A stretch of 64,000 nt of DNA, taken from the NCBI GenBank assembly GCA_947504725.1, contig CANNHN010000005.1:37704-101703 (forward strand). Reading direction: 5' to 3'. This document shows, one piece after another, positions 4,362-64,000 of the stretch (position 1 is the first letter of the stretch; each line of letters opens with the position of its first letter). The notes under the pieces are model-generated. The model saw only the letters and a program-made list of their open reading frames with translations, had not been told where the DNA came from and made no database searches. The position numbers were made by a program, and so were the translations under genes. The stretch is from Bacteroidota bacterium. GTDB lineage: Bacteria > Bacteroidota > Bacteroidia > 2-12-FULL-35-15.

Positions 4362-4559
4362 TTAAAGAAGTAATAGATGTTTAAGCTTTACTATACCATA
4401 CAAGGCAAAAAATATAAATAATGCAAATAGCAATACTTTGTAGCTGCCTTTAAACAATATTTTATTATTGCCTTTATCTTTTCTATACGCCCAGATTATT
4501 CCGATTAGAAAAGACAGAAAAAAAAGTATTGCAAAAATTAATTGTCCGCGTGAAAACAT
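4362..4559 (-). CDS. Small two-TM membrane protein, conserved hypothetical of Bacteroidota type
   Basis: MFSRGQLIFAILFF...WAYRKD...FKGS pattern with two hydrophobic segments. Confidence 0.75.
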   Translation of the reverse strand: MFSRGQLIFAILFFLSFLIGIIWAYRKDKGNNKILFKGSYKVLLFALFIFFALYGIVKLKHLLLL

Positions 4560-36347: not shown

Positions 36348-37751
36348 ATGGCAAAAATCAATCAAATTACTTCCGTTGATTGGCAAACCGAACTAAGAGC
36401 TGCAGCTTTAAAGTATCATTTACTTATTGCTTGGGTGGCTGTAGGCTTGAATCCTATTTGGGCGATTGGTGACTATTTCAACAGCCCTTTTCATTTTATC
36501 GATTTCCTGATTTTTAGATTAGTAGTATCCTTCGTCACGCTAGTTGTTGTATTGTCTAAAGAAAAGCTTAGGAATCATACTGAATACATTGCTTTTATTC
36601 CTTTTGTTGGAATTTCTATTCAAAACGCATACATGTTTAGCGTTATGAATGTGGATGAATTACAAAAACATACATTCGCATATATAGCATTGTTTATTGG
36701 AGCTGGAATGTTTGTATTGTGGCGCCCGATATACTCAATAATGATCGTTGTTATATCTCTTTTAGCAAATGTTGTTTGTTTTTGGTTATTTGGACATTTA
36801 GCAATAGGGGATGTTTTGATTAATGGTGGTATGCTAACTTTATCAGTTGCATTGTTTACCATTTTGCTAATTTATACACGTACGAATCTTACCAAAAAAG
36901 AAATTATTGCCCGTCTGGCTTTGGCCGAATCCAATAATCTATTGGAGATTAAAAACGAAATTATTGAAGAAAAAAATAAAGACATCCGAGATAGTATTAA
37001 CTATGCGCAACGGATACAACAAGCAATTCTTCCTGCTGCCGAAAAAATAGATGCGGTTTTAAAAGATTATTTTATTTTATTTAAACCGAAGGATATTGTG
37101 AGTGGCGATTTTTATTGGCATACAGTTATAAATACAACTCCCCAAGATGGAACTCCATCGGAAAATATTGTAGTGATGGCAGCCGTAGATTGTACTGGAC
37201 ATGGTGTTCCTGGGGCGTTGATGAGTATTATTGGAAGTACCATCTTAAACCAAACGACTACTGCTGCAGCCGTAAATTCTCCTGCTGATGCACTTGGATT
37301 TTTGAATAAAGAAATCACCAAAACATTAAATTCGATAAAAGATGGAATGGACATGGCTTTGTGTGCAATCAATTTTGAAAAATTAGAATTGCAATACGCT
37401 GGTGCAAATAATCCATTATACATTGTGCGTCAAAAGCAATTTATAGAAGTAAAACCAGATAAGCTAGCGATTGGTGCAGATACAGAGGATTCTGCTGTGA
37501 AAGTGTTCACCAACCATTTAATCAAATTAGAAAAAGGAGATTCTGTCTATTTATTTACGGATGGTTATGCTGATCAGTTTGGTGGTCCGAATGGAAAAAA
37601 ATTCAAGTACAAAAAATTCCAAGAGTTATTAATTGAGATGCAAGATAATACGATGGAAGAACAAAAACACATTTTAAATTACCACCACGAATTGTGGAGA
37701 GGGACATTGGAACAAGTGGATGATATACTTGTAATTGGGATAAGAATTTGA
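36348..37751 (+). CDS. Membrane-bound PP2C (SpoIIE-type) Ser/Thr phosphatase
   Basis: About 6 TM helices, then SINYAQRIQ, KPKDIVSGDFYW, DCTGHGVPGA, DGMD, FTDGYADQFGG, DDILVIG; -7 box TAAATTTG at 36321-36328. Confidence 0.93.
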   Translation: MAKINQITSVDWQTELRAAALKYHLLIAWVAVGLNPIWAIGDYFNSPFHFIDFLIFRLVVSFVTLVVVLSKEKLRNHTEYIAFIPFVGISIQNAYMFSVMNVDELQKHTFAYIALFIGAGMFVLWRPIYSIMIVVISLLANVVCFWLFGHLAIGDVLINGGMLTLSVALFTILLIYTRTNLTKKEIIARLALAESNNLLEIKNEIIEEKNKDIRDSINYAQRIQQAILPAAEKIDAVLKDYFILFKPKDIVSGDFYWHTVINTTPQDGTPSENIVVMAAVDCTGHGVPGALMSIIGSTILNQTTTAAAVNSPADALGFLNKEITKTLNSIKDGMDMALCAINFEKLELQYAGANNPLYIVRQKQFIEVKPDKLAIGADTEDSAVKVFTNHLIKLEKGDSVYLFTDGYADQFGGPNGKKFKYKKFQELLIEMQDNTMEEQKHILNYHHELWRGTLEQVDDILVIGIRI

Positions 37752-37916
37752 CAGGTTATAAAGTATTTAGAGTAAAAAGAAAGAGAAGCGTTTTATTTAA
37801 TATAGATACTACCTCACATCTAATCACTCGTTTCCCAATCGCATGTCTATCCATACTACTCAATCTCGTAGTTGCTTTTCCCAAAATTTTATATCTTTAC
37901 TTCCAAATAATCGGTT

Positions 37917-40900
37917 TTGAATAAATTTTACTCTAAATATTTATATTCCTTATTCGTTATAACACTTTTTTTTGGTGTTGTAAATTCTGTACATTCCCAA
38001 GAATTTAAATTCACTCACATCACTTCAGAGCAAGGCCTTTCTATGGGTGTTGTTAATTGTGTTTTGCAAGATAGTAGAGGTTTTATGTGGTTTGGTACTC
38101 AAGATGGATTGAATAAATATGATGGTTATAACATCACTGTATATAAGAATAACCAAATTGATTCCAATTCTCTTTCCAATAATTTTATCAATACTTTATA
38201 CGAAACTAAAAACGGTGAACTTATTATTGGAACCAATGGTGGTGGATTTGATGTTTACAATTTAAGTTCGGGAAAGTTTACACATCACATCGGTTTACAA
38301 AGCAATAAAAATAGTCTCAGCAATAACAATGTAAAATCCATTTTAGAAGATAAAGAAGGGTTGTTGTGGATTGGTACAGATGATGGATTGAATTCGTATA
38401 ATCAAAAAACAAAAAGATTCACCCGTTATCTTAATGACAATAAAAATGCAAATTCTATTTCTAATAACAATGCCTGGTGTTTGTTGGAAGCAACTGATGG
38501 TAAGTTGTGGATTGGTACGTATGGCGGAGGATTAAATTCTTTTGATAAGCGAACAGGGAAGTTTGAACATTTTAATCAGTTTAACAATTCAGGTAGTTTA
38601 TTGTATGAAAACATTAATCTAATTAGAACGATTTATGAAGATAAAGAAGGAATGTTTTGGATTGGAACTTTCGGTGAAGGCGTTCAGATTTTTGATCCGC
38701 ATTCAGGAAAATTTATCAAAAATATTAGAAATTCAGAATCGGATCCCAATTCATTAAGCAACGATAGAGTCTTGAGCATTAATGAAGATATGAATGGAAT
38801 CTTGTGGATTGCAACATATGGTGATGGAATAAATTTATACAATAAAAAAACGGGTAGATTCAGAAGCATTTTACATGATGAAAAAATTCTTACAGGTTTA
38901 AGTAGTAATCAGATAAAATGTATTTACCATGATAAAGTAGGTTCGGTTTGGATTGGAACAGAAGGTGGCGGAGTAAATGCTCATTTTAGAGCATCTAGCA
39001 AGTTTAAGTTTTTTACGAATCATTCAGGATCAGCAGAAGGCTTAAAAAGTAATATCGTTTATGCATTACTAGAAGACAGGGATGGTCTTTTGTGGATTGG
39101 AACAGGTAGGGGGGGCTTGTCAACCCTCGACAGAGAGACGAATACCTATCAACATTATCCTCAATTATCCAAAGGTGCAAATGAATCAATTCTTTCTTTG
39201 TGCGAAGATTCAGATGGGATTATATGGGTTGGGACATGGGGGAATGGCTTGTACTCATATAATAAAAAAACAAAAGAAATTATTTCTTATCCCGAATTTA
39301 AAGAAGTAAATGCTGGGACTATCGTTTCTGTTTTTGAAGATGCAAATGGTAACATTTGGGTAGGAACATATGGAGCAGGGGTGTTTTTTTACAATAAAGC
39401 GAGTACCAATTTCACTAAGTATGATAGTAGTAATGGGCTAAGCATTAATAATATTTATAATATATATCAGGATAGTAAAAAAAATATTTGGATTGCTACT
39501 GATGGTGGAGGAGTTGTTAAATATAATTCTGAATCAAATGTTTTTAAAACGTATAATCGAGATGAAATGCTCAATAGTATTAGTTCAAATTCCGTTAATT
39601 GTTCTTATGAAGACAAAGAAGGAAATATGTGGTTTGGGACAACGAATGGGTTGAATAAGCTAGATGTGAAAACTGGAAAATTCGAAGCGTATTTTGAAAA
39701 AGATGGTTTGCCGAATGATTTTATTTATTCATTGCTTCCTGATAGCAAAGGTAATTTATGGATGAGCACTAACAAAGGTGTTTCAAAGTATAATCCTAAA
39801 ATAAAAAATGAAAACGGTGCTGCTTTTAGAAATTATGATGTGAATGATGGTTTGCAAGGATTAGAGTTTAATCAAGGGGCTTATCATCAATGTGAAGATG
39901 GGGAAATATTTTTAGGAGGAGTAAATGGATTCAATGTTTTTTACCCAGATAAAATCCAAGACAATCCCAATGTTCCTCAAATACATATTATTTCCTATAA
40001 ACGTTTTGGTAAAGAAGTGCTTTTGGATACTTTAATTTATGATAAACAATATTTAGAACTAACGTATAAACAGAATTTTTTCTCATTTGATTTTGTTGCA
40101 TTGGATTATCAAATGCCTGGAAAAAACAAATACTCCTACATGTTGGTAGGCGTTGATGAAGATTGGTCGCCACCAAGTACACAGCGTTACGCAAGTTACA
40201 CTGAATTGAGTGGAGGTGATTACATTTTGCGAGTACGTGGAGCAAATAATGATGGGACATGGAACAATGAAGGAGTCACACTTCACATTCGTATTAATCC
40301 CCCATTTTGGAAAACGAAATGGTTTTACACACTTTGTGTTGTTTTAGTCATTGGTGGATTTTGGGGTTTCTTGAAATACAGAACAAGTTCGATTAAGCGC
40401 GAAAATAAAATTCTTGAAGAAAAAGTTGAAGAACGAACGCAAGAATTAGCTCAAAAAAACAAGGATATTACCAGCAGTATTCAGTACGCTAAACGAATTC
40501 AATTGGCTATTTTGCCTCCTTTGGAACAGATTTTCAAACATTTCCCAGAATCGTTTGTGTTATATAAACCTAAGGATATTGTGAGTGGAGACTTTTATTG
40601 GTTTGGAGTGAAAGATGGTAAGAAGATAATTGCAGCGGTTGATTGCACTGGTCACGGTGTTCCAGGTGCATTTATGAGTATGATCGGGCATAACTTGTTG
40701 AATCAAATTATTAGCGAAAATGGCATTACTCAGCCCGATGAAATTTTGAATGCCTTGCACCGAGGGGTTCAAGCAGCCTTAAAACAAGGAACAAATGTGG
40801 TGGATACGAGTGATGGAATGGATGTAGCGATTTGTTGTATTGATACCGCAAACAATGAATTGAAGTATGCAGGTGCTTATCGACCTTTATTTATTGTAAA

Positions 40901-41219
40901 TGGGGTAAAATTCGACAAAGTAGAAGCAGATAAAAACCCAATAGGTGGTTCTCAATTGGATGCGGATCGTAAGTTTACCGCTCATAGCATTAAAATTAAC
41001 AAAGGTGACACATTCTATATGGCATCGGATGGTTATGCCGACCAATTTGGTGGTGAAAAAGGTAAAAAATTCATGGTTAAACGATTCAATGAATTGATGT
41101 TAGAAATGCAGTCACAGAGCATGGAAGAGCAATGTATAACGTTGGATGAAAAGTTTGAAAACTGGCGAGGCTCTTACCAGCAAATTGATGATATTTTGGT
41201 AATCGGAATAAGATTTTAA
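37917..41219 (+). CDS. Periplasmic beta-propeller (Reg_prop) + Y_Y_Y + TM + PP2C phosphatase
   Basis: About 14 'ED..G.LWIGT..GG' repeats, YTELSGGDYILRVRG, one TM, PP2C motifs as in 36348-37751. Confidence 0.93.
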   Translation: MNKFYSKYLYSLFVITLFFGVVNSVHSQEFKFTHITSEQGLSMGVVNCVLQDSRGFMWFGTQDGLNKYDGYNITVYKNNQIDSNSLSNNFINTLYETKNGELIIGTNGGGFDVYNLSSGKFTHHIGLQSNKNSLSNNNVKSILEDKEGLLWIGTDDGLNSYNQKTKRFTRYLNDNKNANSISNNNAWCLLEATDGKLWIGTYGGGLNSFDKRTGKFEHFNQFNNSGSLLYENINLIRTIYEDKEGMFWIGTFGEGVQIFDPHSGKFIKNIRNSESDPNSLSNDRVLSINEDMNGILWIATYGDGINLYNKKTGRFRSILHDEKILTGLSSNQIKCIYHDKVGSVWIGTEGGGVNAHFRASSKFKFFTNHSGSAEGLKSNIVYALLEDRDGLLWIGTGRGGLSTLDRETNTYQHYPQLSKGANESILSLCEDSDGIIWVGTWGNGLYSYNKKTKEIISYPEFKEVNAGTIVSVFEDANGNIWVGTYGAGVFFYNKASTNFTKYDSSNGLSINNIYNIYQDSKKNIWIATDGGGVVKYNSESNVFKTYNRDEMLNSISSNSVNCSYEDKEGNMWFGTTNGLNKLDVKTGKFEAYFEKDGLPNDFIYSLLPDSKGNLWMSTNKGVSKYNPKIKNENGAAFRNYDVNDGLQGLEFNQGAYHQCEDGEIFLGGVNGFNVFYPDKIQDNPNVPQIHIISYKRFGKEVLLDTLIYDKQYLELTYKQNFFSFDFVALDYQMPGKNKYSYMLVGVDEDWSPPSTQRYASYTELSGGDYILRVRGANNDGTWNNEGVTLHIRINPPFWKTKWFYTLCVVLVIGGFWGFLKYRTSSIKRENKILEEKVEERTQELAQKNKDITSSIQYAKRIQLAILPPLEQIFKHFPESFVLYKPKDIVSGDFYWFGVKDGKKIIAAVDCTGHGVPGAFMSMIGHNLLNQIISENGITQPDEILNALHRGVQAALKQGTNVVDTSDGMDVAICCIDTANNELKYAGAYRPLFIVNGVKFDKVEADKNPIGGSQLDADRKFTAHSIKINKGDTFYMASDGYADQFGGEKGKKFMVKRFNELMLEMQSQSMEEQCITLDEKFENWRGSYQQIDDILVIGIRF

Positions 41220-41318
41220 ACTATATCGCTCCATTTTCGACATATTTTTGAGAAATTGCAAAAAATACCTATATTTGATGTTAGGATAAAACATTGAGAA
41301 ACTAAAAAAACCAATAAC

Positions 41319-42143: not shown

Positions 42144-42230
42144 TGAATCCATGAAAATCCTTATTTATTAAGGTTTTTCGAAAGATTGCAAGGATAAATT
42201 AATAAGGAGTAAATAATTAGTGTTTGCTGT

Positions 42231-42259
42231 TTGATTAATAAAACTTATTTATATATTTG
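42231..42259 (+). promoter_or_regulatory. siaBC promoter: TTG-N18-TATATTTG
   Basis: TTG 42231-42233 and exact -7 box 42252-42259. Confidence 0.65.
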
Positions 42260-42310
42260 CTTTAATTAACTAAACAGAATTGTCAGCTTTATCGATTTAA
42301 CTTAGTGTTT

Positions 42311-42856
42311 ATGATGTTAGATATTTACGATTTTTATGATAAAATGGAGCGTAATAATATTATGCTCTCTTTTAAAGGTGATATCACTTCTGAATTACTT
42401 ACCTCCATATTGCAAATAATGGAATCCAAATTGGATAATTTGCAAGAAGAACCTAAAATTAAAAAGAAAGTTTACAACGTATTGGTTGAGTGTCTTCAAA
42501 ACCTGTATCATCATATGGATGAAGTTGCTCCTGAAGAAAATGATGCTATTCGATCTGCAATCTTCATGATTGGCAAGTTGGATAATCAATACAACATTGT
42601 AACAGGAAATTATATTAAAAAAGAAAACGTAGAAGGATTAAAGAAACGTTTAGAGGATATAAATTTATTATCGAAAGAAGAATTAAAGGAATATTACAAA
42701 GCTGTTTTAAATAATGGTGAAATGTCAATGAAAGGTGGAGGTGGATTAGGAATGATTGATATCGCGCGTAAAACAGGAGAGAAATTGAATTTTAACTTTT
42801 CTCCAGTAGACGATAAATTTTCATTTTTCAGTTTAAATATTAAAATATCACAATAA
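42311..42856 (+). CDS. siaB: SiaB family protein kinase (DUF6272)
   Basis: FKGDIT.ELL, LVECLQNLYHH, TGNYI, ELKEYYK, GGGLGMIDIARKTG. Confidence 0.88.
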   Translation: MMLDIYDFYDKMERNNIMLSFKGDITSELLTSILQIMESKLDNLQEEPKIKKKVYNVLVECLQNLYHHMDEVAPEENDAIRSAIFMIGKLDNQYNIVTGNYIKKENVEGLKKRLEDINLLSKEELKEYYKAVLNNGEMSMKGGGGLGMIDIARKTGEKLNFNFSPVDDKFSFFSLNIKISQ

Positions 42857-42866
42857 AAATAAGATT

Positions 42867-43247
42867 ATGGAAACAATTTCAATTGAAGGAACACCAAAAA
42901 CACCAACAATCATTTTTGATACTGGAAAAGGCTTTTTGGAAATTAAGGGACGCTCTATACCTGAAAACTCTATTGAGTTTTACAAGCCATTAGTGGATTG
43001 GTTAGAAAAATATGCTGCGAAACCTCAGGCTGCTACAAACGTAAATGTTCAATTAGAATATTTTAATACAAGTTCATCTAAATGTATTTTAGATGTATTT
43101 AAGAAATTGGAAGCTATTAACAAAGGTGGAAGTACAGTTGTTATTAACTGGTACTATGAAGAAGATGATGAGGATATGTTAGAAGCGGGTGAAGATTATC
43201 AAGCAATCATCAATGTGCCTTTTAAAATGGTTCAAGTAGCTGAATAA
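42867..43247 (+). CDS. siaC: SiaC family phosphoprotein (DUF1987)
   Basis: T.KTP.I.FD, GRSIPEN, LEYFNTSSSK (Thr68), WYYEEDDEDM.E.GED. Confidence 0.92.
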   Translation: METISIEGTPKTPTIIFDTGKGFLEIKGRSIPENSIEFYKPLVDWLEKYAAKPQAATNVNVQLEYFNTSSSKCILDVFKKLEAINKGGSTVVINWYYEEDDEDMLEAGEDYQAIINVPFKMVQVAE

Positions 43248-43421: not shown

Positions 43422-44195
43422 TTATACATTCCCCATCAAATACATTGCACTCATTGTTGGAGACGAGCTACCACCTTTCTTTTCCAATGTTACTGCAAAA
43501 GCCTGCGCCCCTACAATTGTTTTCATTTTTTGAAGAGAAGCTGAATCGCTCTTCATGTCAAATACTCCAGCATCAACAGCTTTGCCGTCAACTATAGCCC
43601 AAAGTTGATATTGTTTATCGTCTGACGGCATTGGTAAAGAATTTACATTAATGTATACGTCCTTTGTATTTTGATTCCAATATAAAGCTGCCAGTGAGGT
43701 AGGTGACATTTCCATTCCCTTTAGCATAATTTTTTTGTTTTCAGGGTGCATTAAAACAGCCATTTCTTGTGCCATTTCTCCATATGATTTTGATTGTGAT
43801 TCAAAATCGGTAGCATATTGTTCATTTTTTAAAACTATTGAAGCAATTTGTTCTTCATTGTCTTTTATATTGTTAAGTAATATAACATTGTAAATAGAGC
43901 TCCCTATTAATAATGCAATAGATGCGGCTAAGAGCCATGATCTATTTTTGTTCGGCTGGAGAGTTAAAACTGTGTTTTTAGTGAAATCTATTTCACTTTG
44001 TATTTTTTGTTTTAATGCCGAAGGAGGATTTTTAGAAGCATGACTCATTAGTGTTCCTTCAATAAGTTCAATCTCCGCTAACACTTCAGCGTGTTTTCTT
44101 GACATTGCTTCAACTTCCGCTCGTTCTTTTTCAGAAAGGAGCCCAAGTACGTAGCTTTCAATAATACCTGATGATATGTAATCTTGAATATTCAA
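43422..44195 (-). CDS. Anti-sigma factor (RskA/anti-sigma-K type)
   Basis: YISSGIIESYVLG.LS..ER.EVE, TM, P.DKQYQLWAI..GK.VDAG, FAVTLEK.GGS..PT. Confidence 0.92.
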   Translation of the reverse strand: MNIQDYISSGIIESYVLGLLSEKERAEVEAMSRKHAEVLAEIELIEGTLMSHASKNPPSALKQKIQSEIDFTKNTVLTLQPNKNRSWLLAASIALLIGSSIYNVILLNNIKDNEEQIASIVLKNEQYATDFESQSKSYGEMAQEMAVLMHPENKKIMLKGMEMSPTSLAALYWNQNTKDVYINVNSLPMPSDDKQYQLWAIVDGKAVDAGVFDMKSDSASLQKMKTIVGAQAFAVTLEKKGGSSSPTMSAMYLMGNV

Positions 44196-44196
44196 T

Positions 44197-44739
44197 TTAG
44201 TTCATTTTTTTTCTTAATTCGATTATGGCAGCCCTAACTCTTGTTTTTACAGTGCCTAAAGGTATATTCAATTCTTTTGATGTTTCTTCTTGAGTGAATC
44301 CCTTAAAGTAAATAAAATCAATTAATTTTCGATATTCTTCTTTTAATTTATGGACCTCTTCTTTTATTCCAATTGTGTCTGAATTGAATGAGACAATATT
44401 CTGTTCGTTGACTTCATAAACGGAATTATCGATGTCATGGATTTTGTTTTCTAACTTGAATTGTTTCGATCGGGAATAGTCAATTGCCGAATTTCGTGCA
44501 ATATTGAGCATCCAAGTGAATAATCTACCTTTGCTCGTGTCGTACTTTTCGATGTTTTTCCAAATTTTAATAAAAACATCTTGTAAAAGATCTTGAGCAA
44601 TTTCTTCTGCAGGTATTATTCGACTTACGATACCGTATAAAGCAGAAGAATAATTGTCGTATAAAACATTGTATGCATTTGCATCCTTGTTTTTTAATAA
44701 GGAAACTAATTCTTCTTCTGTAAAGGGGTTCTTTTTCAA
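44197..44739 (-). CDS. ECF RNA polymerase sigma-70 factor (TTG start)
   Basis: LYDNYSSALYG, DLLQDVF..IW, FTWMLNIARN.AID, LNIPLGTVKTR. Confidence 0.93.
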   Translation of the reverse strand: MKKNPFTEEELVSLLKNKDANAYNVLYDNYSSALYGIVSRIIPAEEIAQDLLQDVFIKIWKNIEKYDTSKGRLFTWMLNIARNSAIDYSRSKQFKLENKIHDIDNSVYEVNEQNIVSFNSDTIGIKEEVHKLKEEYRKLIDFIYFKGFTQEETSKELNIPLGTVKTRVRAAIIELRKKMN

Positions 44740-49698: not shown

Positions 49699-50592
49699 CT
49701 ATTGAATTATGAATTTTCCTTTAGATAGTATGCTGTTGAAGCTATTTACTTGATAGATGTAATTGCCTTTTGATAGAGTGCCTTCCTCTATTATTACTTT
49801 GTTGCTAGTCAGATTCCCGATTTCTATCACTTTTTTACCCGACATATCAAATATGCTTACAATTGCCGACTCTAACTGCTCAAAATTAGTATCTATTACT
49901 AAAGTTGCAGAACCTGTAAATGGATTTGGGAAAACGGTGGATGATAACAATGAGTTTGCATTTTCTATAATCGACATAGGTGTTTCAGGTATGTTGATTC
50001 TGTCGATATACAAAGTTGGTAGCTCCCAAGTAGAGTCGTTCCACATATAATATTTGCTAGAATTGAACATAATAATGATAGAATCAGGCGTTACTCCTGG
50101 CATTAAGTCGTTGATGTTTACTGTAAACGAAGTATAGCTTGCTGTTGCAGGCAAAGTTTTTACCGAATAAGCAACAGTATCGCGCGACATCGTCAAGGTA
50201 TTGTAACGTTTTAAAACAACTGTAACTTCTGCAGAATCTCCTGTGCCCTGATCGTTGTATTTATAAAACCCTGAAAATGTAGTAGGTTTTGAAGTAAAAG
50301 GTGTTCCTGATTCCATAAAACTGCCATAATCCAAAGGAGGTTGACCATTTACCATAACTCCTGGAGCAATTCCGCAGGCAAACCATCCTTGAATTTTTGT
50401 TGCGTATGTACCTTGGAAAGCATCTGTAGTTTGTTTTACAGTATTGCAATAAAATGGCCACCAGTTAGTAGGAACAGTATCTGGCGAATAAGAACTTGTA
50501 GTAGTCCAACTTTCAAACCCCGGGTTCGATAGTGTTTGTCAATTCATACTTAAGCCTGCTAAAAGTAAGAATGCAATTAGTGATTTTCTCAT
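49699..50592 (-). pseudogene. T9SS type A cargo protein (PCMD-like domain + CTD) interrupted by an in-frame TGA
   Basis: MRKSLIAFLLLAGLSMN*(TGA 50541-50539)QTLSNPGFESW... continues in frame into the track ORF 50355; CTD VFPNPF...IFDMSGK...LSKGNYIY...GKFIIQ; -7 box TACATTTG at 50622-50629. Confidence 0.8.
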
Positions 50593-56338: not shown

Positions 56339-56920
56339 ATGAAATTTAGTTGTATTTATTTCTTTGGTCTTTTAGTATTGATAAGCTCTTGCGGACCAGA
56401 AAAAATAGGAGAGGTTAAAAATGGAGTTGCTATTGTTGATACAGTTGCCTCACAAGAGCCTGCTGTTTCTGAAACCTACAGATTGGAAACTTTCCAGAAC
56501 ATGGAGATGATAGAATATTGTTTGTTGCTTCCTTTAAGTGAATACACATTGGTTGACGAAAAAAGTGAAAAGGCGGCTCATTCGTTTATTCATAAAACGA
56601 AAAAAGACAATACAATTGCTATTCAAGGCTTGTTGAGAGCCAATTCGGAAGTTTCAATTGAAGAGTATTTTAAAAATTCATTGGAAGATGCTGAATTGGA
56701 AGGAAAAATTATTGAGAAAAAAGAATTGAAAAAAGACAAGAATTGTTTTTATGCAAAAGGCTATTGGAACAATTCAATTCATGAATCTCGTTTTATAGAA
56801 GTATGTTGGTTGCGGAGCGATGAGGTAGTGAAATATTATTCCTCTTTTGATATTGCAGATACTACATTGTGGAATAAACGATTGGAAGAAATTTTGAAAT
56901 CCGGCAGCGTTTGTAAATAA
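56339..56920 (+). CDS. Hypothetical lipoprotein
   Basis: Lipobox ISSC; no family recognised. Confidence 0.7.
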   Translation: MKFSCIYFFGLLVLISSCGPEKIGEVKNGVAIVDTVASQEPAVSETYRLETFQNMEMIEYCLLLPLSEYTLVDEKSEKAAHSFIHKTKKDNTIAIQGLLRANSEVSIEEYFKNSLEDAELEGKIIEKKELKKDKNCFYAKGYWNNSIHESRFIEVCWLRSDEVVKYYSSFDIADTTLWNKRLEEILKSGSVCK

Positions 56921-56968: not shown

Positions 56969-58564
56969 CTATTTTACTTTTATTATCATTGGACTCATTG
57001 CTACAACAATTCCATCTGGTCCCATTCCTTTTATTTCTTCAAAAAAGATTCGTTCATTCTTTTTTACTTTTTGTAAGCGTGTTATCATTGCAGATGTAAG
57101 CATGTTAGATGTTGAAAAATAATCTTCTGCAATTCCTCCGCTTATAAAACTCATTGTGAATGAAGTTACAACAGGTTTTGATTCGTATTCAAAAGAAGGA
57201 TAAAATGCGATTAATCCTTTTTGAACAGTAATCGTTCCTTTGTTCACACTTCCGCTTTCAGTCATTTCAGCAAATTTTGCACTTGGTTTTGGAATTCTTC
57301 TTACTCTGAATTCTTGAACACCCATATTTCTTTTTTCGCCATTCTCTAAATTTGCGATTACAGAAACATTTACAACTCCGTCAGTGATTGGTTTTATTAT
57401 ATACTTTCCATTTCCTTGGCTTATCATTATGGCATTTGATGCCGATACTGTGAGTTTTTCATTTGGAACACCAGGGACAGAAACCGAAATTGGATTTTCT
57501 AATCCTCGATATACTAGATTCATGTTTTCAGCTGCAACAGTTAATGATGGCTTTGCAACAATGTATTCCGATTTGAAAGGATAAATCATTTCTTTTCCTT
57601 TTGGAGAAATTACTTTCACCGTTCCAGAATAGGTCATGATTCCTTCTTTGTTGGTACTTGCTACATATTTTCCTAATCCTCGTTCAACTGGAATTGCATT
57701 TGGTGTTCCATTAAACGATTTGCTTGCTTCATTGTAATCTCCCACCATAACTTCAGGATTTCTAGTTTTATTGAATGCTGCAAGAAAAACTTGTGCTTTG
57801 TATTCTTCACCCAACATTACATAATTACTTTCCGGAATTACTTTTGCTGCAATCGTATCAAACTTCATCGTTTCTACATCCATCTCTTTTAATAAATAAT
57901 CAACAGTAGTTGCTTCTGCATTTTTTACATCGTTTTTTAGTTTTGATAAAATCGTAAGACTAGCTACTAATGGACGGTCATAAAAATTATACAACTCCCA
58001 ATTCTCATTTTCTTCACTGAATTTCGGGTCATCTGTATTGATGTCTAATTTTACTTTTGACTTATCTTTCGGTAAAATATAACTGCTTAATTGTGTTCTG
58101 TATGCATTCAATCTGTTTTTTAAATCGCGTGAAGCACCAGCAGAACCATCTTCCGAATTGCCAATTAAAATATTAGTTGGAATATTGTAGTCATCTTTGT
58201 TTTCGATGCTTGCCATTTGAATGGTGTCTGCAACACTTTGCTCCAATCCTTCTGTTTTTGCAATCAACTCTTTTTGAAGTTTATCAATAAAATCATTTAA
58301 TTCTTGAGAACGCTTTTTTACATCCTGTGCTTTTTTCCAGTTGGGTGTTACTTTTACTGGATCTACACTCTTCGCTAAATCGAACATCGAGTAAAGCGTT
58401 TCGTTATTGTCAGTAAAATTGATGTTTGTGTTTTCCAATCCTTTATTTACAATTACAAAAGCATCTAAAATGTCTTTGGAAACATTCAATGCTAAAAGAC
58501 AGGTAAGTACTAAGTACATCATACCAATCATTTTTTGTCGTGGGGTGTCTTTTGCTGAAGCCAT
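56969..58564 (-). CDS. gldM: GldM/PorM T9SS-gliding motor rotor protein (no gldK/L/N adjacent)
   Basis: TPRQKMIGMMYLVL..LLALNVSK.ILDAF N-terminus with R9 and Y17; F...PLVA.LT.LSKL.NDVKNAE; NLVYRGLENPISVSVPG; FRVRRIPKP. Confidence 0.92.
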   Translation of the reverse strand: MASAKDTPRQKMIGMMYLVLTCLLALNVSKDILDAFVIVNKGLENTNINFTDNNETLYSMFDLAKSVDPVKVTPNWKKAQDVKKRSQELNDFIDKLQKELIAKTEGLEQSVADTIQMASIENKDDYNIPTNILIGNSEDGSAGASRDLKNRLNAYRTQLSSYILPKDKSKVKLDINTDDPKFSEENENWELYNFYDRPLVASLTILSKLKNDVKNAEATTVDYLLKEMDVETMKFDTIAAKVIPESNYVMLGEEYKAQVFLAAFNKTRNPEVMVGDYNEASKSFNGTPNAIPVERGLGKYVASTNKEGIMTYSGTVKVISPKGKEMIYPFKSEYIVAKPSLTVAAENMNLVYRGLENPISVSVPGVPNEKLTVSASNAIMISQGNGKYIIKPITDGVVNVSVIANLENGEKRNMGVQEFRVRRIPKPSAKFAEMTESGSVNKGTITVQKGLIAFYPSFEYESKPVVTSFTMSFISGGIAEDYFSTSNMLTSAMITRLQKVKKNERIFFEEIKGMGPDGIVVAMSPMIIKVK

Positions 58565-58640
58565 GATTTCTGAGTTTTTTTAAGTTTATATTAAACTTGA
58601 ATTTTGCCTCATAATGCTAGCTAAGAAAAAAAGATACAAT

Positions 58641-58669
58641 AAAAAACGCCACAAGATGTGCATGTGGCG
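58641..58669 (-). terminator. Intrinsic terminator 77 nt upstream of gldM
   Basis: Minus strand CGCCACA-TGCACATCT-TGTGGCG-TTTTTT. Confidence 0.75.
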
Positions 58670-58726
58670 CTATGAGGGAGTAGCCTCATGAAAAAACAAT
58701 AAAATTGGACACTAATTTAAGTGACA

Positions 58727-58797
58727 CAAAGGAAACTATTTTTCTTTCGAGATAATATCCGTAGAGAAGGGTAAATTTTTCTACGTACTAGCACGGA
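58727..58797 (-). promoter_or_regulatory. Operator-like element (copy 2) with a -7-like box TTCCTTTG at 58727-58734
   Basis: ATCCGTAGAGAAGGGTAAATTTTTCTACGTACTAGCACGGA (58757-58797), 33/41 identical to 62978-63018. Confidence 0.7.
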
Positions 58798-58843
58798 GGA
58801 GTAAAATAGGAAGTAAGAAGATAGATTTTTTTCTTTTTATGTT

Positions 58844-61144
58844 TTAAATACGAATTCCAATAACACAGATGTCGTCCACTTGTTCTAAATGGGATTTCCA
58901 TTTATTTATAGCTGACTTAAGCAAGTCTCCTTGTTCGACCAAGGGTAATTTGGCTATGCTTAACAATAATTCTTTTAATTGTTTATACATGAATTTTTTA
59001 CCATTCGGACCTCCGAATTGATCAGCCATTCCATCTGTGAAAGTGTAAACTACATCCTCTTTTTGTAACTGAATGGTATGTTGAGTAAAAGAAACAGAGT
59101 CTTTGTCATGTTTCCCAACCGGCATTTTGTCTGGTAAAAAAGCAAGGATTTCATTTCCTCTTGCAATCCAAACGGGATTGTTGGCAGAAGAGTATGTTAG
59201 TTGCTTCTTTGAAAAATCAAAACTGATCAGACTACAATCCATACCGTCTTTTCCACCTTCTTCACTTCCATCATTCGATAAATGATGAATGATTCTTGCA
59301 CGTGTATAGTTTAAGATTTCATTTGGTGCAGTTAATTGTTGTCCATTCACTGCTTCGTTCAAGCATGAAATATTTAGCATGCTCATGATGGCGCCTGGTA
59401 CTCCATGTCCCGTGCTATCTGCCGTTACCAATGCAAATTGGCCGTTTTTTAATTCACTAGCCCAATAGAAATCTCCACTAACAATATCTTTTGGTTGGAA
59501 AAAAATAAAATGATCTGGTAAATTAGTATTTAAGAATTGTTTACTAGCTAGAAGCGAATGTTGAATCCGTTTCGCGTAATTAATACTGTCGGTGATTTCG
59601 CGGTTCTTTTCCTCAACCAATATTTTTTGTTTTTCAATGTATATGTTTTTTTCTTCCAACAAGCTGTTTGCTTTCTGTTTTTGACGATAGCTGCGATAAG
59701 CAAAAACAGCAAAACATAAAATTAAAAATCCTACAAAACCAACAAAGTATAATATAATGGTTTGTTTTCTTCGTTCTGCAATGTTTAATGCATCCTTTTT
59801 TTCCTGCTCTGCCTTTACAATAGATTCTTTTTTGTCGAATTCATATTGCATTTGTGATTCAACAAGTTTTTTTGAGGTCTCCTGATTTACTAGGCTATCT
59901 CTGTATAGAATAGCCATTTTATGATGTTCGAAAGCTTGTTTCCAAAATTTTCCAGGACCGCTGTTTGGTGTTTGAAATCCTGCTGCCTGTGCACTGTCTA
60001 ATTCAGCTAAACCGCTGTATGTATCTTTAATATAATCTTTGGCTCCAATTTCTTTTGATAGTGTTAATCCTTTGTCAAGATATTCTAACGCTTCTTTGAA
60101 TTTCTTTTGCTTTGTGAAAATTACTCCAATGTTAGTGTAGCAATTAGCGATGCCATTTTTATCTTCAAGTTCCTCTGCAAGTTTTAAAGAAGCGAGTTGA
60201 TTTTTTAAAGCATCTTCATAATTTCCTTTGTTTTTATAAATAATTCCAATGTTATTATACGACATAGCGATTCCTCTTTTGTCGCCTATCTCTTCCATTA
60301 TCTTTAATGAAGCCAGTTGATTTGCAAGTGCTTCGGTGTAGTTGCCTTGCAAGTAATGTATGATTCCAATGTTGTTGTAGGAAGACCCGATTCCATTTTT
60401 ATCACCGATTTCTAATCTGATTTTCAAAGAAGCCAATTGATTTTTTAATGCTTCTTTATAGATATTTTGTGAATAATAGATGTTGCCAATATTGTTGTAA
60501 CAATTAGCAATTCCTTGTTTGTCGCCTAATTCTTCTCTGATTTTTAAGGATGAAAATTGATTTTTTAAAGCATCTGAATAATTTCCTTGTAAGTGGTATA
60601 CGTTGCCAATATTCATGAAACAAATTGCCATTCCATTTTTGTCATTTATTTCTGTTCTGGTTTTTAGAGAAGACAGGTGATTCTTTAATGCTTCGGAGTA
60701 GTTGCCTTGAGCATAATAGATATTTCCTATGTTGTTATAAGATCCTGCTATTCCTTCTTTATCGCTAATTTCTTCCCTAATTTTTAATGAGATTGAATAA
60801 TTTTTTAAAGCATTTTTGTAATCTCCTTGATTGTCGAAAATAATTCCAATATTATTATACGCTTTGCCTTCGCCTTTTTTGAACCCTATTTTTTTTGAAA
60901 CAGCCAATGCGTCATTGGCATATTGATTTGCGCTTGAGTAATCTCCTGTATTCCTTATTTCTCTGCAAAGATTATTGAGGGTGTTGACTTTTGTAGTGTC
61001 TTCTTTGCTAACTTTTATAAAGGATTTAAGTGAGTCGATAGTTTGATTTTGTGCAGAAAAATTTGAATTAAAAAAAATGAATAACATAATCAAAAGAAAG
61101 TTTTTCAAATCTATCTTTCTGTATATATAACTATGGTAATTCAT
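58844..61144 (-). CDS. Periplasmic TPR sensor + TM + PP2C phosphatase
   Basis: Signal ending SAQ; 40-aa repeats DK.GIA.SYNNIG.IY..QGNY..AL...L.SLKI.EE.G; TM; SINYAKRIQ, DIVSGDFYW, DSTGHGVPGA, DDICVIG. Confidence 0.93.
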   Translation of the reverse strand: MNYHSYIYRKIDLKNFLLIMLFIFFNSNFSAQNQTIDSLKSFIKVSKEDTTKVNTLNNLCREIRNTGDYSSANQYANDALAVSKKIGFKKGEGKAYNNIGIIFDNQGDYKNALKNYSISLKIREEISDKEGIAGSYNNIGNIYYAQGNYSEALKNHLSSLKTRTEINDKNGMAICFMNIGNVYHLQGNYSDALKNQFSSLKIREELGDKQGIANCYNNIGNIYYSQNIYKEALKNQLASLKIRLEIGDKNGIGSSYNNIGIIHYLQGNYTEALANQLASLKIMEEIGDKRGIAMSYNNIGIIYKNKGNYEDALKNQLASLKLAEELEDKNGIANCYTNIGVIFTKQKKFKEALEYLDKGLTLSKEIGAKDYIKDTYSGLAELDSAQAAGFQTPNSGPGKFWKQAFEHHKMAILYRDSLVNQETSKKLVESQMQYEFDKKESIVKAEQEKKDALNIAERRKQTIILYFVGFVGFLILCFAVFAYRSYRQKQKANSLLEEKNIYIEKQKILVEEKNREITDSINYAKRIQHSLLASKQFLNTNLPDHFIFFQPKDIVSGDFYWASELKNGQFALVTADSTGHGVPGAIMSMLNISCLNEAVNGQQLTAPNEILNYTRARIIHHLSNDGSEEGGKDGMDCSLISFDFSKKQLTYSSANNPVWIARGNEILAFLPDKMPVGKHDKDSVSFTQHTIQLQKEDVVYTFTDGMADQFGGPNGKKFMYKQLKELLLSIAKLPLVEQGDLLKSAINKWKSHLEQVDDICVIGIRI

Positions 61145-61223
61145 TTTGATTGTATGATTTTTGAAAAAATTAATTAATTCACATTTTTTAGTTTGTTAAA
61201 TATAGAAATAAGTAAGATGTCTC

Positions 61224-61261
61224 AAAAAAAATGGCTGCCAAAATCAGAAGGCAGCCATTTT
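61224..61261 (-). terminator. Terminator after the lipoprotein gene
   Basis: AAATGGCTGCC...GGCAGCCATTT stem with A8 on the plus strand. Confidence 0.8.
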
Positions 61262-61280
61262 AATTTAACTAAACAAAAAC

Positions 61281-62105
61281 TTATTCGCTCATTAAAGCGC
61301 CATCAATACTATACTCAACACCTGTAACTACATCTTCTACTTTTGCATCACTAGCCATTTCAAAAGAAGTTTCTGTAACATTTACATGTCCATCAGATGC
61401 ATAATAGTATTTTGCATGATCCATGCTTGCCAAGGTTGGTGTAGCAAGATCACTAAAGTCAAGTAATTGACCAATTGCAATAGTTCCTGATGCACCATCG
61501 TCAAAAAAGCCAAATTCAAAACTACCTTCTCCAGCTGTACCAACTACAAGAAAAATAGCTAAGTTGTTAATCATAAAATCTGTTCCATCTATTTCTCCAT
61601 CAATTGCTACAATTGCTCTTAATTCAGCACTTCCAGCAATACTGCCCCAGTCAGGATCCGCAGATGTTACTTTGATACCTAATACATAATTGTAGTCAAA
61701 ACTTTTTCCGTTGTAAGATAATTGACCTAAGCCACCACCTGTTGATTCAGAAAAAGTATAGGAAGTTGTAGGTGTTGTTGGATCACTCCATGAATAAACA
61801 GTTCTAGCAGGATCTGAATAGGTTGTTCTGCCGAATGTAACGTTTGAGTATATGTTTGTTCCGGATCCAGCACTTGTAAAACTTTGTTGACTTGAACCAC
61901 CTGCCTGAGCTGTAACAAAACCGCGAAGAATCCTTTGGATGTTCTGACGCATTTGTTTGTTTGCAGGCGAGGTAGTATTGTTTGATTTAGCGATGCTCAG
62001 TTGTTTTTCCTTTTGACAAGAAGCTACACTAAGCAAAATCATCAACAAAGCTGGATAAACAAACATTTTCCCCAACATGTTTGATAAAAACGAAAATTGT
62101 TTCAT
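61281..62105 (-). CDS. Hypothetical Ser/Thr/Gly-rich lipoprotein
   Basis: Lipobox VASC-QKEK; beta-rich composition; start could be further downstream. Confidence 0.75.
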   Translation of the reverse strand: MKQFSFLSNMLGKMFVYPALLMILLSVASCQKEKQLSIAKSNNTTSPANKQMRQNIQRILRGFVTAQAGGSSQQSFTSAGSGTNIYSNVTFGRTTYSDPARTVYSWSDPTTPTTSYTFSESTGGGLGQLSYNGKSFDYNYVLGIKVTSADPDWGSIAGSAELRAIVAIDGEIDGTDFMINNLAIFLVVGTAGEGSFEFGFFDDGASGTIAIGQLLDFSDLATPTLASMDHAKYYYASDGHVNVTETSFEMASDAKVEDVVTGVEYSIDGALMSE

Positions 62106-62133
62106 GTTATTTATATTTTAAGAGGTTAAATAA

Positions 62134-62153
62134 GAGGGAGTATTAACTCCCTC
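62134..62153 (-). terminator. Intergenic hairpin between the OMP and lipoprotein genes
   Basis: GAGGGAGT-ATTA-ACTCCCTC 8-bp stem, weak U-tail. Confidence 0.5.
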
Positions 62154-62174
62154 ATTAAAGATAAACAATATTCT

Positions 62175-62921
62175 CTAGAAAATATATCCCAAACGAATTG
62201 CGCTATTAAAATTTGGTCCAAAATTAACTTCTCTTCCTTGGCTGCTTGGATCAGGATTTCCTGGATCTACTGCTGGAGGTGTAACAGCTGGGTAAGTAGA
62301 AGGATAAGTTGTAGTCATTTTGTGGTCACTGTATTTTACCATTTGGAAACCAAAACCAAATTCAGTTCCTAAATACAAATGCTTTGTAATGTAACAATCA
62401 AAACCTGCTACAACGTTAGCTCCAACTCTGAAAAAACCACCTTTGTTTTTGTTTTTGTCAGTTTGAATTACAAATTGGTCTGTTGTTCCGCCTGCATCAA
62501 GTCCTGTTGGAGTAACTTCTTTTGAAGATTGTCCGGCTAAATCTAATTCAGCTCCAATATATGGGCTCAAGCGATTTGTTCCAGCAAAGTGTTTTTCATA
62601 ACCTGGTCTGATATTCCAACCAAATTGTCTTTTTTTGTAATCCTCAGATACTGTAGTTCCCGCTGTTAAGTTTGAATTAAAAACAGAGTCTGCTTTGGTA
62701 GATGAATAGCTTAATCCAATTCCTAAACGGAATGCAGTGCTTTCGCTTAAAAATCTTCTGTAGCGAATGTATGTTAATTGAATTGGTTTACCATTTAATG
62801 GAACAAAATTCAATTCTAAATTATTTGCTTTTGCAGCAGGTTTAAAGTCTGATGCATCTTGTGCCATTGTTAAAGTGCACACAGATAAAAAAAGTGCTGA
62901 TGTAGTAATAGTTTTTTTCAT
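62175..62921 (-). CDS. Outer-membrane beta-barrel protein
   Basis: ATG 62921 MKKTITTSALFLSVCTLTMAQ signal; amphipathic strands; terminal RLGYIF. Confidence 0.82.
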   Translation of the reverse strand: MKKTITTSALFLSVCTLTMAQDASDFKPAAKANNLELNFVPLNGKPIQLTYIRYRRFLSESTAFRLGIGLSYSSTKADSVFNSNLTAGTTVSEDYKKRQFGWNIRPGYEKHFAGTNRLSPYIGAELDLAGQSSKEVTPTGLDAGGTTDQFVIQTDKNKNKGGFFRVGANVVAGFDCYITKHLYLGTEFGFGFQMVKYSDHKMTTTYPSTYPAVTPPAVDPGNPDPSSQGREVNFGPNFNSAIRLGYIF

Positions 62922-62947
62922 GATAGGATTTATTTGGTTTATATGCA

Positions 62948-63019
62948 CAAAAGTATATATGCTTTTGTGTGCACACAATCCGTATGGGTGGGTAAATTTG
63001 TATCCGTACTAGTACGGAT
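62948..63019 (-). promoter_or_regulatory. Operator-like element (copy 1) with promoter TTG-N20-TACTTTTG
   Basis: Perfect 18-bp palindrome ATCCGTACTAGTACGGAT (63002-63019) within the 41-bp element from 62978; -7 box 62948-62955. Confidence 0.75.
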
Positions 63020-63050
63020 GTGGGCTGTTTGCTCTCTAAATAATGGGGAT

Positions 63051-63698
63051 TTAGTCGATCAGCTTGTTTTCAATCGCAAACTTTATTAGCCCTACAGCGC
63101 TTTTGGTATTCGCTTTTCTGAAGATGTTTTTTCGATGTGTTTCTACAGTACGCTCGCTAATAAATAGGGCTTCACCAATTTGAGCATTACTATATTCTTT
63201 TGCAATAAGTTGAATGATCTCTTTTTCTCGCTCCGTAAAATAAATTTTGTTCTCGCCTTCTTTTTTTTGTCCCCGCTCGCTAAGTGTTTTCATCATCTCA
63301 GCAGAAATCTCATCACTAAAAAACATGCCTCCTGCAGCAATTTTTGTTAATGCATTTATTAGTTCTGTTTTTCCTGTGTTTTTTAAAATATAACCAGATG
63401 CACCAGCATCTAGCATTTCGGAGATGGTACTTCTTTCACCAAACATGGAAAGCACAAGCACTTTTATTTCAGGATGATTTTTTTTAAGCAAACGAGTAAA
63501 TTCAATCCCATTCATTTCAGGCATATTGATATCGCTTAAAACAATATCAGGAGTGTTTTTTTTTATTAATTCAATAGCGATGCTTGCTTTTGTAGCTTCT
63601 CCCACAATAGTAAACGCATTTTCATTATGTAATAAAGCTTTTATACCGTCAACCAGCATTTGATGGTCATCCAAAATAAAAAGTTTGATTTTGCTCAT
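63051..63698 (-). CDS. NarL/FixJ-family (LuxR HTH) response regulator
   Basis: ILDDH, LSDINMPEMNG, LSM, GASGYILK; TEREKEII.LIA..YSN.QI...LFISERTVETHRKNI; ATG 63698. Confidence 0.95.
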   Translation of the reverse strand: MSKIKLFILDDHQMLVDGIKALLHNENAFTIVGEATKASIAIELIKKNTPDIVLSDINMPEMNGIEFTRLLKKNHPEIKVLVLSMFGERSTISEMLDAGASGYILKNTGKTELINALTKIAAGGMFFSDEISAEMMKTLSERGQKKEGENKIYFTEREKEIIQLIAKEYSNAQIGEALFISERTVETHRKNIFRKANTKSAVGLIKFAIENKLID

Positions 63699-63714
63699 AT
63701 TGTAAAAATACGAA

Positions 63715-64000
63715 TTATTTGATAGGAACTTCAATGCTTACTGTGGTTCCTTTTTCAGGGCGTGAATCAAAATTAACATTGCCGTTGAGGTATTCGATTC
63801 TAGATTGAATGTTTTTTAATCCGATACCTTTTTCCATCACTTTGTTTAGGTCAAATCCAATTCCATTGTCCTCAATCATCAAGGTTAACTCATCGTTATG
63901 ACGTATGATTTGGATATTAACAACAGTTGCCTGAGAATGCTTGATAATGTTGTTTACTAATTCTTGAAGCACTCTAAACAAAACTGTTTCCATAGTGCTT
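63715..64000 (-). CDS. C-terminal HATPase domain of a NarX/UhpB-type histidine kinase (partial)
   Basis: LFRVLQELVNNIIKHS, IEDNGIGF, GIGLKNI, G..GT.V; frame stays open past the window end. Confidence 0.92.
   Translation of the reverse strand, partial: STMETVLFRVLQELVNNIIKHSQATVVNIQIIRHNDELTLMIEDNGIGFDLNKVMEKGIGLKNIQSRIEYLNGNVNFDSRPEKGTTVSIEVPIK

Follow-up and report, generated by a model that had tools for sequence, protein, structure and literature searches.

Two-component, phosphatase and stand-alone gldM genes side by side in a Bacteroidota genome: a conserved operator and a variable island

Genes and signals between 56969 and 64000

We analysed the right end of a 64,000-nt stretch of DNA from a Bacteroidota bacterium (the whole stretch is hereafter called the window), where six genes follow each other on the minus strand between positions 56969 and 64000. 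They encode a sensor histidine kinase, a response regulator, a small outer-membrane β-barrel, a lipoprotein, a phosphatase with tetratricopeptide repeats (TPRs) and a stand-alone homologue of GldM, a motor protein of gliding and of the T9SS (type IX secretion system). A previous, sequence-only reading had described them as a single sensing module, in which a His-Asp relay is combined with the phosphatase and whose outputs are a surface protein pair and a motor subunit. Our results favour a different picture, to which we give a probability of about 0.6: the region would be a mosaic of independent units (kinase and regulator, surface pair, phosphatase, gldM, variable island and a second operator) and not one module. 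The co-orientation of the six genes is unremarkable by itself.

Identities were assigned to the six gene products by Pfam and NCBIfam profile searches. All six open reading frames (ORFs) are present on the minus strand and the profiles backed their previous labels. Hairpins followed by T runs were also found at both proposed terminators (61224-61261 and 58641-58670), and both proposed operators were located. The features are listed below in the direction of transcription.

63715..64000, running beyond the window end, minus strand: 3′-terminal part of the gene for the sensor histidine kinase (Pfam HATPase_c, 60.5 bits)
63051..63698, minus strand: response regulator of the NarL/LuxR class, 215 aa, REC plus GerE helix-turn-helix (Response_reg 97.9 bits, GerE 65.4 bits)
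62946..63018, minus strand: operator 1 and barrel promoter (palindrome, invariant ATTTACC, third half-site, −33 TTG, −7 box)
62175..62921, minus strand: small outer-membrane β-barrel, 248 aa including its signal peptide (matches OMP_b-brl, DUF3575 and PorG weakly; precomputed OmpA_like match)
62134..62153, minus strand: intercistronic hairpin separating the barrel gene from that of the lipoprotein (stem of 8 bp and weak T tail, −14.3 kcal/mol, z = −4.65)
61281..62105, minus strand: lipoprotein, 274 aa, lipobox LSVASC (no Pfam or NCBIfam family match)
61224..61261, minus strand: intrinsic terminator at the end of the barrel-lipoprotein unit (12-bp stem and T8, −21.7 kcal/mol, z = −4.6)
58844..61144, minus strand: sensor phosphatase of the SiaA type, 766 aa (SpoIIE 77.6 bits over residues 567-765, many TPR matches)
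58725..58797, minus strand: operator 2 (every invariant column kept, with a TTTGT −7-like box spaced as in operator 1)
58641..58724, minus strand: structured stretch from operator 2 to the gldM promoter (three hairpins, fold −26.7 kcal/mol, z = −5.4)
58641..58670, minus strand: intrinsic terminator, the last hairpin of this stretch (9-bp stem and T6, −13.4 kcal/mol)
58607..58638, minus strand: promoter motif of the orphan gldM, TGTATC-T7-N8-GCATTATGAGG (conserved across orphan-gldM relatives)
56969..58564, minus strand: stand-alone ("orphan") putative paralogue of GldM/PorM, 531 aa (TIGR03517, 320.9 bits; cut-off 180)

Bacteroidota promoters were read by eye as a −33 TTG and a −7 TAnnTTTG; a scan with the sigma-70 consensus was uninformative, with 30 sites for 28.6 expected. 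An Rfam search at a permissive threshold gave only one chance match to a snoRNA, and no tRNAs. Fetched loci or contigs carrying relatives of the window genes are designated below by L-numbers (L001, L003, L084 and others). The parts of the region are new members of known families, and its under-described element is the orphan GldM clade.

The two-component system and the barrel-lipoprotein operon

The complete kinase gene was obtained from L001, a 25-kb contig reached by exact-match look-up of the regulator, which extends 4.4 kb past position 64000. On this contig the gene occupies 2440-4380 and encodes a protein of 646 aa with, from the N to the C terminus, a signal peptide, TPR_12 repeats, a transmembrane (TM) segment at residues 399-417, HisKA_3 and HATPase_c; the H-box of HisKA_3 reads ELHDGVGQ in the translation of the L001 gene. 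Hydropathy analysis recovered two segments, 3-21 and 399-417, with the TPR_12 repeats in between, so that the TPR array is predicted to be periplasmic. The guess that reading past 64000 would reveal a TPR sensor in the kinase was thus correct. The other suspected element, a small gene for a secreted peptide beside the kinase, was not found there: the kinase gene is separated by 4 nt from the preceding Amidase_3 gene and by 16 nt, after its stop codon, from the regulator gene, and these gaps therefore leave no room for a peptide gene. The kinase and regulator genes are probably co-transcribed with the Amidase_3 gene. When compared with the FimS model (NF053520), the kinase matched over its N-terminal 250 aa only, with 94.9 bits, and did not reach the cut-off of 600.

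The regulator, of which an identical copy is present on three other contigs, has the acidic pocket (DD10-11) and the phospho-acceptor D56 in its sequence. Its best NCBIfam matches were MctR, NarL and the UvrY type, each below its cut-off. An envelope or periplasmic cue would lead the kinase to phosphorylate this regulator.

Upstream of the barrel gene, operator 1 contains the palindrome TCCGTACTAGTACGGA (63003-63018), two heptamers separated by 2 bp (TCCGTAC-TA-GTACGGA), followed by ATTTACC-N6-TACGGAT at 62978-62997. The TACGGAT of this second motif is a third half-site that overlaps the −33 TTG (62971-62997), and the −7 box TACTTTTG (62946-62955) lies 20 nt further on. Sites combining the palindrome with ATTTACC-N6-TACGGAT occur only twice in the 64 kb; by chance, 0.03 palindromes and 0.00 copies of the downstream motif would be expected. 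An inverted heptamer pair in this 7-2-7 arrangement is the classic site of NarL-family regulators. The same layout, with its invariant columns and a fixed distance to the core promoter, could be aligned in L088, L009, L085 and L089. We recovered the operator in all seven fetched loci in which the kinase and regulator genes precede the barrel gene (L001, L003, L085, L086, L088, L089 and L090), and it was absent from two distant barrel-lipoprotein pairs, one with an ECF (extracytoplasmic function) sigma gene upstream (L092), the other with no regulator nearby (L091). The surface pair is thus a credible output, since the operator is conserved together with the kinase and regulator and is missing from distant pairs that lack this regulator.

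The control of the barrel-lipoprotein pair by the two-component system is therefore well supported, if indirectly, by this comparison of relatives. A regulator dimer would bind the 7-2-7 palindrome and the third half-site overlapping the −33 element, and this binding would activate a two-gene operon ended by the strong terminator at 61224-61261, whose hairpin was also found in L084. Of the outputs proposed earlier, the surface pair thus stood, with its conserved operator; the motor subunit was not supported, as gldM follows a terminator and then its own conserved promoter. That the palindrome is the site of some other DNA-binding protein, or a scar left by recombination or insertion of the island described below, is very unlikely, even though no kinase/regulator pair was found near the copy in L009 and the window has a second palindrome towards the island's right end. 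NarL-class dimers suit a 7-2-7 geometry, the spacing from the core promoter boxes (−33 and −7) of the barrel gene is fixed in all relatives, and the site is neither present in barrel-lipoprotein pairs with other regulators or none nor located at the left boundary of the island.

The barrel gene is the first of the regulated pair, and in relatives the lipoprotein gene invariably comes next. The lipoprotein belongs to a tiny, lineage-restricted family, with 49 relatives among 5.8 billion proteins and, in a profile search, 24 among 1.84 billion cluster representatives. Its AlphaFold2 model is β-rich (pLDDT 79.5, pTM 0.76) and had no significant match when its fold was compared with the PDB (best E = 0.1, TM-score < 0.25). 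As a sensing circuit, this combination of a TPR two-component system, a clearly defined operator and a two-gene target is ordinary. Its interest is that, for a FimS-like TPR kinase, a clean regulon is defined by the operator.

The phosphatase and the variable site before gldM

The phosphatase is predicted to consist of a signal peptide, a periplasmic TPR array, a coiled coil, a TM segment (463-481) and a cytoplasmic SpoIIE/PP2C domain, in which the metal-binding motifs of PP2C are present (ADSTGHGV, GKDGMD and FTDGMAD). Its best NCBIfam match was SiaA (NF038263), with 157.8 bits over the catalytic half only and below the cut-off of 700, and it thus appears to be a relative, not an orthologue, of SiaA. 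The gene, with a promoter of its own, would encode an input phosphatase of the SiaA/RsbU type. Within its TPR region (60126-60910) we observed a run of six units of 120 nt (40 aa) with 64-76% DNA identity, which suggests a fairly recent internal repeat expansion.

A SiaB/SiaC pair with two further phosphatases is encoded elsewhere in the window:

36348..37751, plus strand: SiaA-like membrane PP2C, 467 aa, adjoining siaB/siaC
37917..41219, plus strand: SiaA-like Reg_prop/Y_Y_Y PP2C, 1100 aa, adjoining siaB/siaC
42305..42856, plus strand: SiaB-family protein kinase (NF038262, 172 bits; cut-off 85)
42867..43247, plus strand: SiaC-family phosphoprotein (PF09345, 154 bits)

The SiaC homologue could be aligned with SiaC of P. 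aeruginosa (PDB 6kko, E = 1.7e-21), the phospho-threonine being kept in the motif NTSS. These proteins form a partner switch in Pseudomonas, where the phosphorylation of SiaC is determined by SiaA and SiaB (PMC7647112). The TPR phosphatase is 38-41% identical to the two PP2Cs of the SiaABC-like cluster (36348-37751 and 37917-41219). It would dephosphorylate the SiaC-like protein encoded 16 kb away, opposed by the SiaB-like kinase, and is most likely, judging from these family assignments, a third sensor feeding the SiaB/SiaC partner switch and not a branch of the His-Asp relay. The combination of relay and phosphatase in the sequence-only reading was thus not retained, the phosphatase being SiaA-like and a SiaB kinase and a SiaC phosphoprotein being encoded at 42.3-43.2 kb. 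The SiaABC-like cluster (36348-43247, plus strand) also encodes a 274-aa protein of no assigned identity. The propeller part of the 1100-aa PP2C scored 138 bits against the model of the T9SS protein PorZ, below the cut-off, which probably reflects only a shared β-propeller fold.

Comparison of the gene order with that of relatives gave two different results. The order kinase-regulator-barrel-lipoprotein was kept at 72-93% protein identity in L084, L085, L086, L088 and L089, and conservation of gene order, which the earlier reading had named as a check, was to this extent observed; the six genes were not conserved together. The slot after the lipoprotein gene differed, being occupied by the TPR-PP2C gene in the window and in L084, and in L085 and L089 by a pair of small lipoprotein genes and a gene for a BNR protein that carries a sorting domain of the T9SS. 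In the closest relatives by GldM identity (L095/L096, 88%; L098, 79%; L004, 63%), the Amidase_3 gene directly abuts gldM. These relatives share with the window a backbone in the order RF-1, Amidase_3, gldM, 194-aa gene, PriA, DUF218, PFK and RlmL, and none of the five sensing genes was found in it. The six genes can thus not be considered a conserved unit.

Because the amidase gene abuts gldM on an otherwise identical backbone in the closest relatives, the five sensing genes correspond to an insertion or deletion of about 7 kb. At the same site, L005, L094 and L097 carry an FGE-sulfatase gene, a gene for a PKD/BNR T9SS cargo protein and a Reg_prop/Y_Y_Y-PP2C gene, and L009 carries this set together with a barrel-lipoprotein pair. 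The site between the amidase gene and gldM is thus a hotspot with at least four alternative contents, the empty state included, and the kinase, regulator, barrel, lipoprotein and phosphatase genes are a variable island of about 7 kb located at this hotspot, before the gldM promoter. Over its C-terminal 300 aa the phosphatase has 64-69% identity with the PP2Cs of the propeller type that precede gldM in L005 and L009, and the TPR phosphatase can therefore be viewed as the same module with a swapped sensor. What look like "modules" beside gldM are, in this lineage, different cargoes that an insertion hotspot has taken up. On the other side of gldM, between this gene and priA, a lipoprotein of 193 aa without family assignment is encoded at 56339-56920 (plus strand), and its position is kept in L085, L089, L095, L097 and L098.

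Operator 2 lies between the phosphatase gene and gldM. Its palindrome TCCGTGCTAGTACGTA (58782-58797) reads TCCGTGC-TA-GTACGTA and is followed by ATTTACC-N6-TACGGAT at 58757-58776; an ATT is present where each copy of operator 1 has the −33 TTG. No such operator was found at the equivalent position in L005, L009, L085, L089, L094, L095, L097 and L098, and it is thus restricted to the window strain. When 58300-59300 was compared with the contigs of four other metagenomes, the conserved N-terminus of GldM from other organisms accounted for all matches, and operator 2 had none. The following stretch (58641-58724) matched no Rfam family, and its terminator hairpin (58641-58670) is common to the right end of the L085/L089 island, which is without operator 2. 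The only small ORF seen has 22 codons (MRLLPHSATCTSCGVFYCIFFS, with four Cys; 58621-58689, minus strand). It starts in the hairpin after operator 2, crosses the terminator, is not conserved in relatives and is probably not a gene.

Operator 2 may be a relic of a rearrangement that moved the barrel-lipoprotein pair, the order in L009 being PP2C, operator, barrel, lipoprotein and gldM. Alternatively, it may be a weak promoter or a weak additional input of the regulator, giving a short RNA or read-through into gldM. The structured stretch itself could be a leader, a relic, or an RNA of some 85 nt whose synthesis is regulated. We considered more specifically that operator 2 drives an RNA of this size acting in trans, for instance on the TATGAGG of the gldM leader. 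The succession of an operator, a −7-like box, a strongly structured stretch (z = −5.4) and a terminator would fit such an RNA, in which a CCTCATA is complementary over 7 nt to the conserved TATGAGG. However, the arrangement is conserved in no relative, the −33 element is missing and Rfam has no matching family; a complementarity of 7 nt is easily obtained by chance and the terminator is shared with islands that have no operator 2. A trans-acting RNA is thus quite unlikely.

The stand-alone gldM and known systems

The protein encoded by the window gldM has all four domains of GldM (GldM_1st, 2nd, 3rd and 4th, or D1-D4), each above its cut-off. A scan of the GTDB species genomes with this protein yielded 80 loci, whose neighbour genes were clustered. 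All matches with at least 41% identity, and a few weaker ones, were stand-alone, whereas the more than 60 matches at 40% identity or less were located within porP-gldK-gldL-gldM-gldN operons, the neighbours being confirmed by NCBIfam. Homologues of GldK, GldL and GldN were found neither within 10 kb of any orphan copy nor in the 64-kb window. In a neighbour-joining tree with a midpoint root, the orphan GldMs were all on one side and the operon-embedded GldMs all on the other. In a set of 82 GldMs, orphan and canonical, conservation reaches at least 90% in the N-terminal TM helix (PRQKMIGMMYLVLT.LLALNVSK), with its conserved Arg for pairing with GldL, and is lowest in D4. The databases contain more than 120 proteins with 55% identity or more to the window GldM, and those that are named are all called plain "GldM", the annotation given everywhere to the stand-alone clade. 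We found no published description of orphan GldM copies; only the paralogues GldJ and GldO came up in the literature found. An unusual, reversed order, with a canonical-clade GldM gene followed by that of a GldL homologue and no adjacent gldK or gldN, was seen in L043 (10001-12418; metagenome-assembled genome (MAG) GWF2_40_14).

The orphan gldM would be transcribed from its own conserved promoter, downstream of the terminator. Sequence conservation upstream of the gene starts exactly at TGTATC, irrespective of what lies further upstream, and in relatives the motif takes the form TGTATC-T(5-8)-N(8-10)-GCATTAT(GAGG), about 70 nt before the gldM ATG. A regular expression for this motif had 11 matches in 1.55 Mb, nine of them upstream of an orphan gldM (eight loci and the window's own copy) and the remaining two upstream of an ECF sigma gene next to an orphan gldM (L006 and L008). 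In these two loci (L006, 1919-2870; L008, 11714-12648), the ECF sigma gene and a gene for an 89-aa anti-sigma factor with a single TM segment follow the orphan gldM, and homologues of the pair lie immediately upstream of the orphan gldM in L012 (2079-2791); the three loci represent separate lineages. The ECF sigma factor of the relatives is neither a SigP nor a PG0214 equivalog. ECF sigma factors usually transcribe their own genes. The motif shared with the promoter of the ECF sigma gene suggests a place for the orphan gldM in the regulon of this factor, and its promoter is probably recognised by a sigma factor of the ECF type. Another such pair, an ECF sigma factor of 180 aa (44197-44739) and an RskA-type anti-sigma factor of 257 aa, is encoded beside siaB/siaC on the opposite strand (43422-44739, minus strand); this sigma factor, the only one of the ECF type in the window, is a weak match to the one linked to orphan gldM and the region upstream of its gene is without the TGTATC motif.

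Two views of the protein were compared. The view that the window gldM encodes the only GldM of the organism, a working subunit of the T9SS motor in a lineage whose gldKLMN operon has been split up, is favoured by its score well above the cut-off of the GldM equivalog, by its intact GldL-binding helix, by the T9SS cargo proteins of the lineage and by the finding of both gldM types together in one MAG only. C-terminal sorting domains of the T9SS were found on small proteins in the window (49699-50355, minus strand) and in L001 (73-675); an organism that has such cargo should have a working T9SS. We nevertheless consider this view doubtful, since the orphans, which come from several orders, cluster apart from all the 60-plus operon-embedded GldMs, gldL and gldM are adjacent in every canonical locus sampled, the MAG PLXK01 carries both types (one orphan gldM, L010, and one canonical gldKLMN copy, L040), and D4, the domain contacting the outer ring, is the most divergent part. 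The orphan gldM would rather encode a paralogue of the T9SS/gliding motor protein that kept the GldL-docking helix. Tentatively, the orphan GldMs could be an undescribed family of paralogues forming an alternative periplasmic rotor arm, which would re-tool or throttle the motor on an envelope signal, the site upstream of the gene collecting, in different strains, sensors (the TPR two-component system, SiaA-like phosphatases) and T9SS cargo, and having gained an operator of the response regulator in the window strain. The proposal of an alternative rotor arm, which is less likely than not, is based on the conservation of the GldL-docking helix, the divergence of the domain contacting the outer ring, which is the most pronounced of the protein, and the dedicated, probably ECF-dependent promoter.

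Several observations weigh against the mosaic or against one of its units. A PP2C gene lies immediately upstream of the orphan gldM in the window, L005, L094 and L097, and in a fifth lineage (L009) it is upstream with the barrel-lipoprotein pair in between; in L097 no obvious terminator was seen between the PP2C gene and gldM, so that a functional link between the two is possible. As operator 2 keeps every invariant base and the −7-like box, a link between the regulator and gldM is also possible in this strain. L009 has operator 1 and, over the 10 kb fetched, no kinase/regulator pair. A distance of 16 kb separates siaB/siaC from the gene of the TPR phosphatase, and the pairing is by family membership only. 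No cognate ECF sigma factor for the orphan gldM was found in the 64-kb window, and the coexistence of orphan and canonical gldM comes from one MAG only, PLXK01, which could be chimeric. Finally, the window sequence was found in no RNA run, and only in DNA metagenomes from lakes, sediments and wastewater.

Some of these observations would be explained by one integrated circuit for contact or ligand sensing, in which the TPR kinase and regulator and the TPR phosphatase control both the surface pair, through operator 1, and gldM, through operator 2. The invariant positions kept in operator 2, its TTTGT box spaced as in operator 1, the recurrence of the PP2C-gldM adjacency and the barrel-lipoprotein pair directly upstream of gldM in L009 agree with such a circuit, as does the paralogy of the two TPR sensors, whose TPR parts are 33% identical over about 400 aa. 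Against it, operator 2 exists only in the window strain, without the −33 TTG and with an intrinsic terminator within about 85 nt, the gldM promoter is conserved in relatives devoid of all five sensing genes, and the phosphatase belongs to a family that acts through switches of the SiaB/SiaC type, such a pair being encoded elsewhere in the window. An integrated circuit is thus unlikely, and we retain the mosaic of independent units for the following comparisons.

The sequence-only reading had compared the TPR proteins with peptide receptors of quorum sensing, the RRNPP type. RRNPP receptors (Rap, NprR, PlcR, PrgX) act in the cytoplasm of Firmicutes, where they bind peptides that are encoded next to them and taken up again by the cell. 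The likeness is limited to TPR repeats as a ligand-binding surface. Both TPR proteins of the window have an N-terminal signal sequence and one TM segment after the TPR array, and the analogy was ruled out because both arrays belong to membrane sensors and are predicted to lie in the periplasm, whereas RRNPP receptors are cytoplasmic; in addition, no peptide gene is adjacent.

A closer counterpart of the kinase is FimS of the FimS/FimR system of Porphyromonas gingivalis, a periplasmic TPR sensor whose ligand is not known (PMC11053733). Both have a signal peptide or first TM segment, then some eight TPR motifs in the periplasm, a further TM segment and a cytoplasmic kinase, and the output of the FimS system is also a cell-surface structure. 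In contrast to that system, the kinase core of the window protein is of the HisKA_3 type, its partner is a NarL/LuxR-type regulator instead of FimR, and the target is the barrel-lipoprotein pair and not fimbriae. The regulator and its site resemble the NarL/NarP class by the REC and GerE domains, the perfect inverted heptamer pair with a 2-bp spacer and the extra half-site near the core promoter. However, the scores of the regulator with the NarL, NarP and UvrY equivalogs were all below cut-off, the heptamer is GTACGGA instead of TACYYMT and the promoter is of the Bacteroidota −33/−7 type.

The phosphatases are best compared with the SiaABCD system of Pseudomonas aeruginosa, with which the window shares a SiaA-like membrane PP2C, a SiaB-family kinase and a SiaC with the conserved Thr. 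It differs by three sensor phosphatases (TPR, β-propeller/Y_Y_Y and multi-TM) versus one, by the absence of a SiaD-type diguanylate cyclase next to the window siaB/siaC and by the distance of 16 kb to the TPR phosphatase.

For the promoter of the orphan gldM, a parallel is provided by PorXY-SigP of P. gingivalis, where porL, porM and other T9SS genes are transcribed under SigP, an ECF sigma factor that receives its input from a two-component system (PMC12152298). The likeness lies in the ECF sigma/anti-sigma pair found next to orphan gldM in relatives, which shares the gldM promoter motif; the two-component system of the window differs, as it is of the NarL type with a DNA-binding output, unlike PorX. 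Finally, the orphan GldM resembles its counterpart in the GldL-GldM (PorL-PorM) motor by its four domains and by the near-invariant N-terminal TM helix with Arg9. If it is true that orphan GldMs coexist with canonical motor genes, this raises the question of whether one GldL motor can drive more than one kind of GldM. The differences from that motor are that the window gldM stands alone, belongs to a separate clade, has a dedicated promoter and is most divergent in D4.

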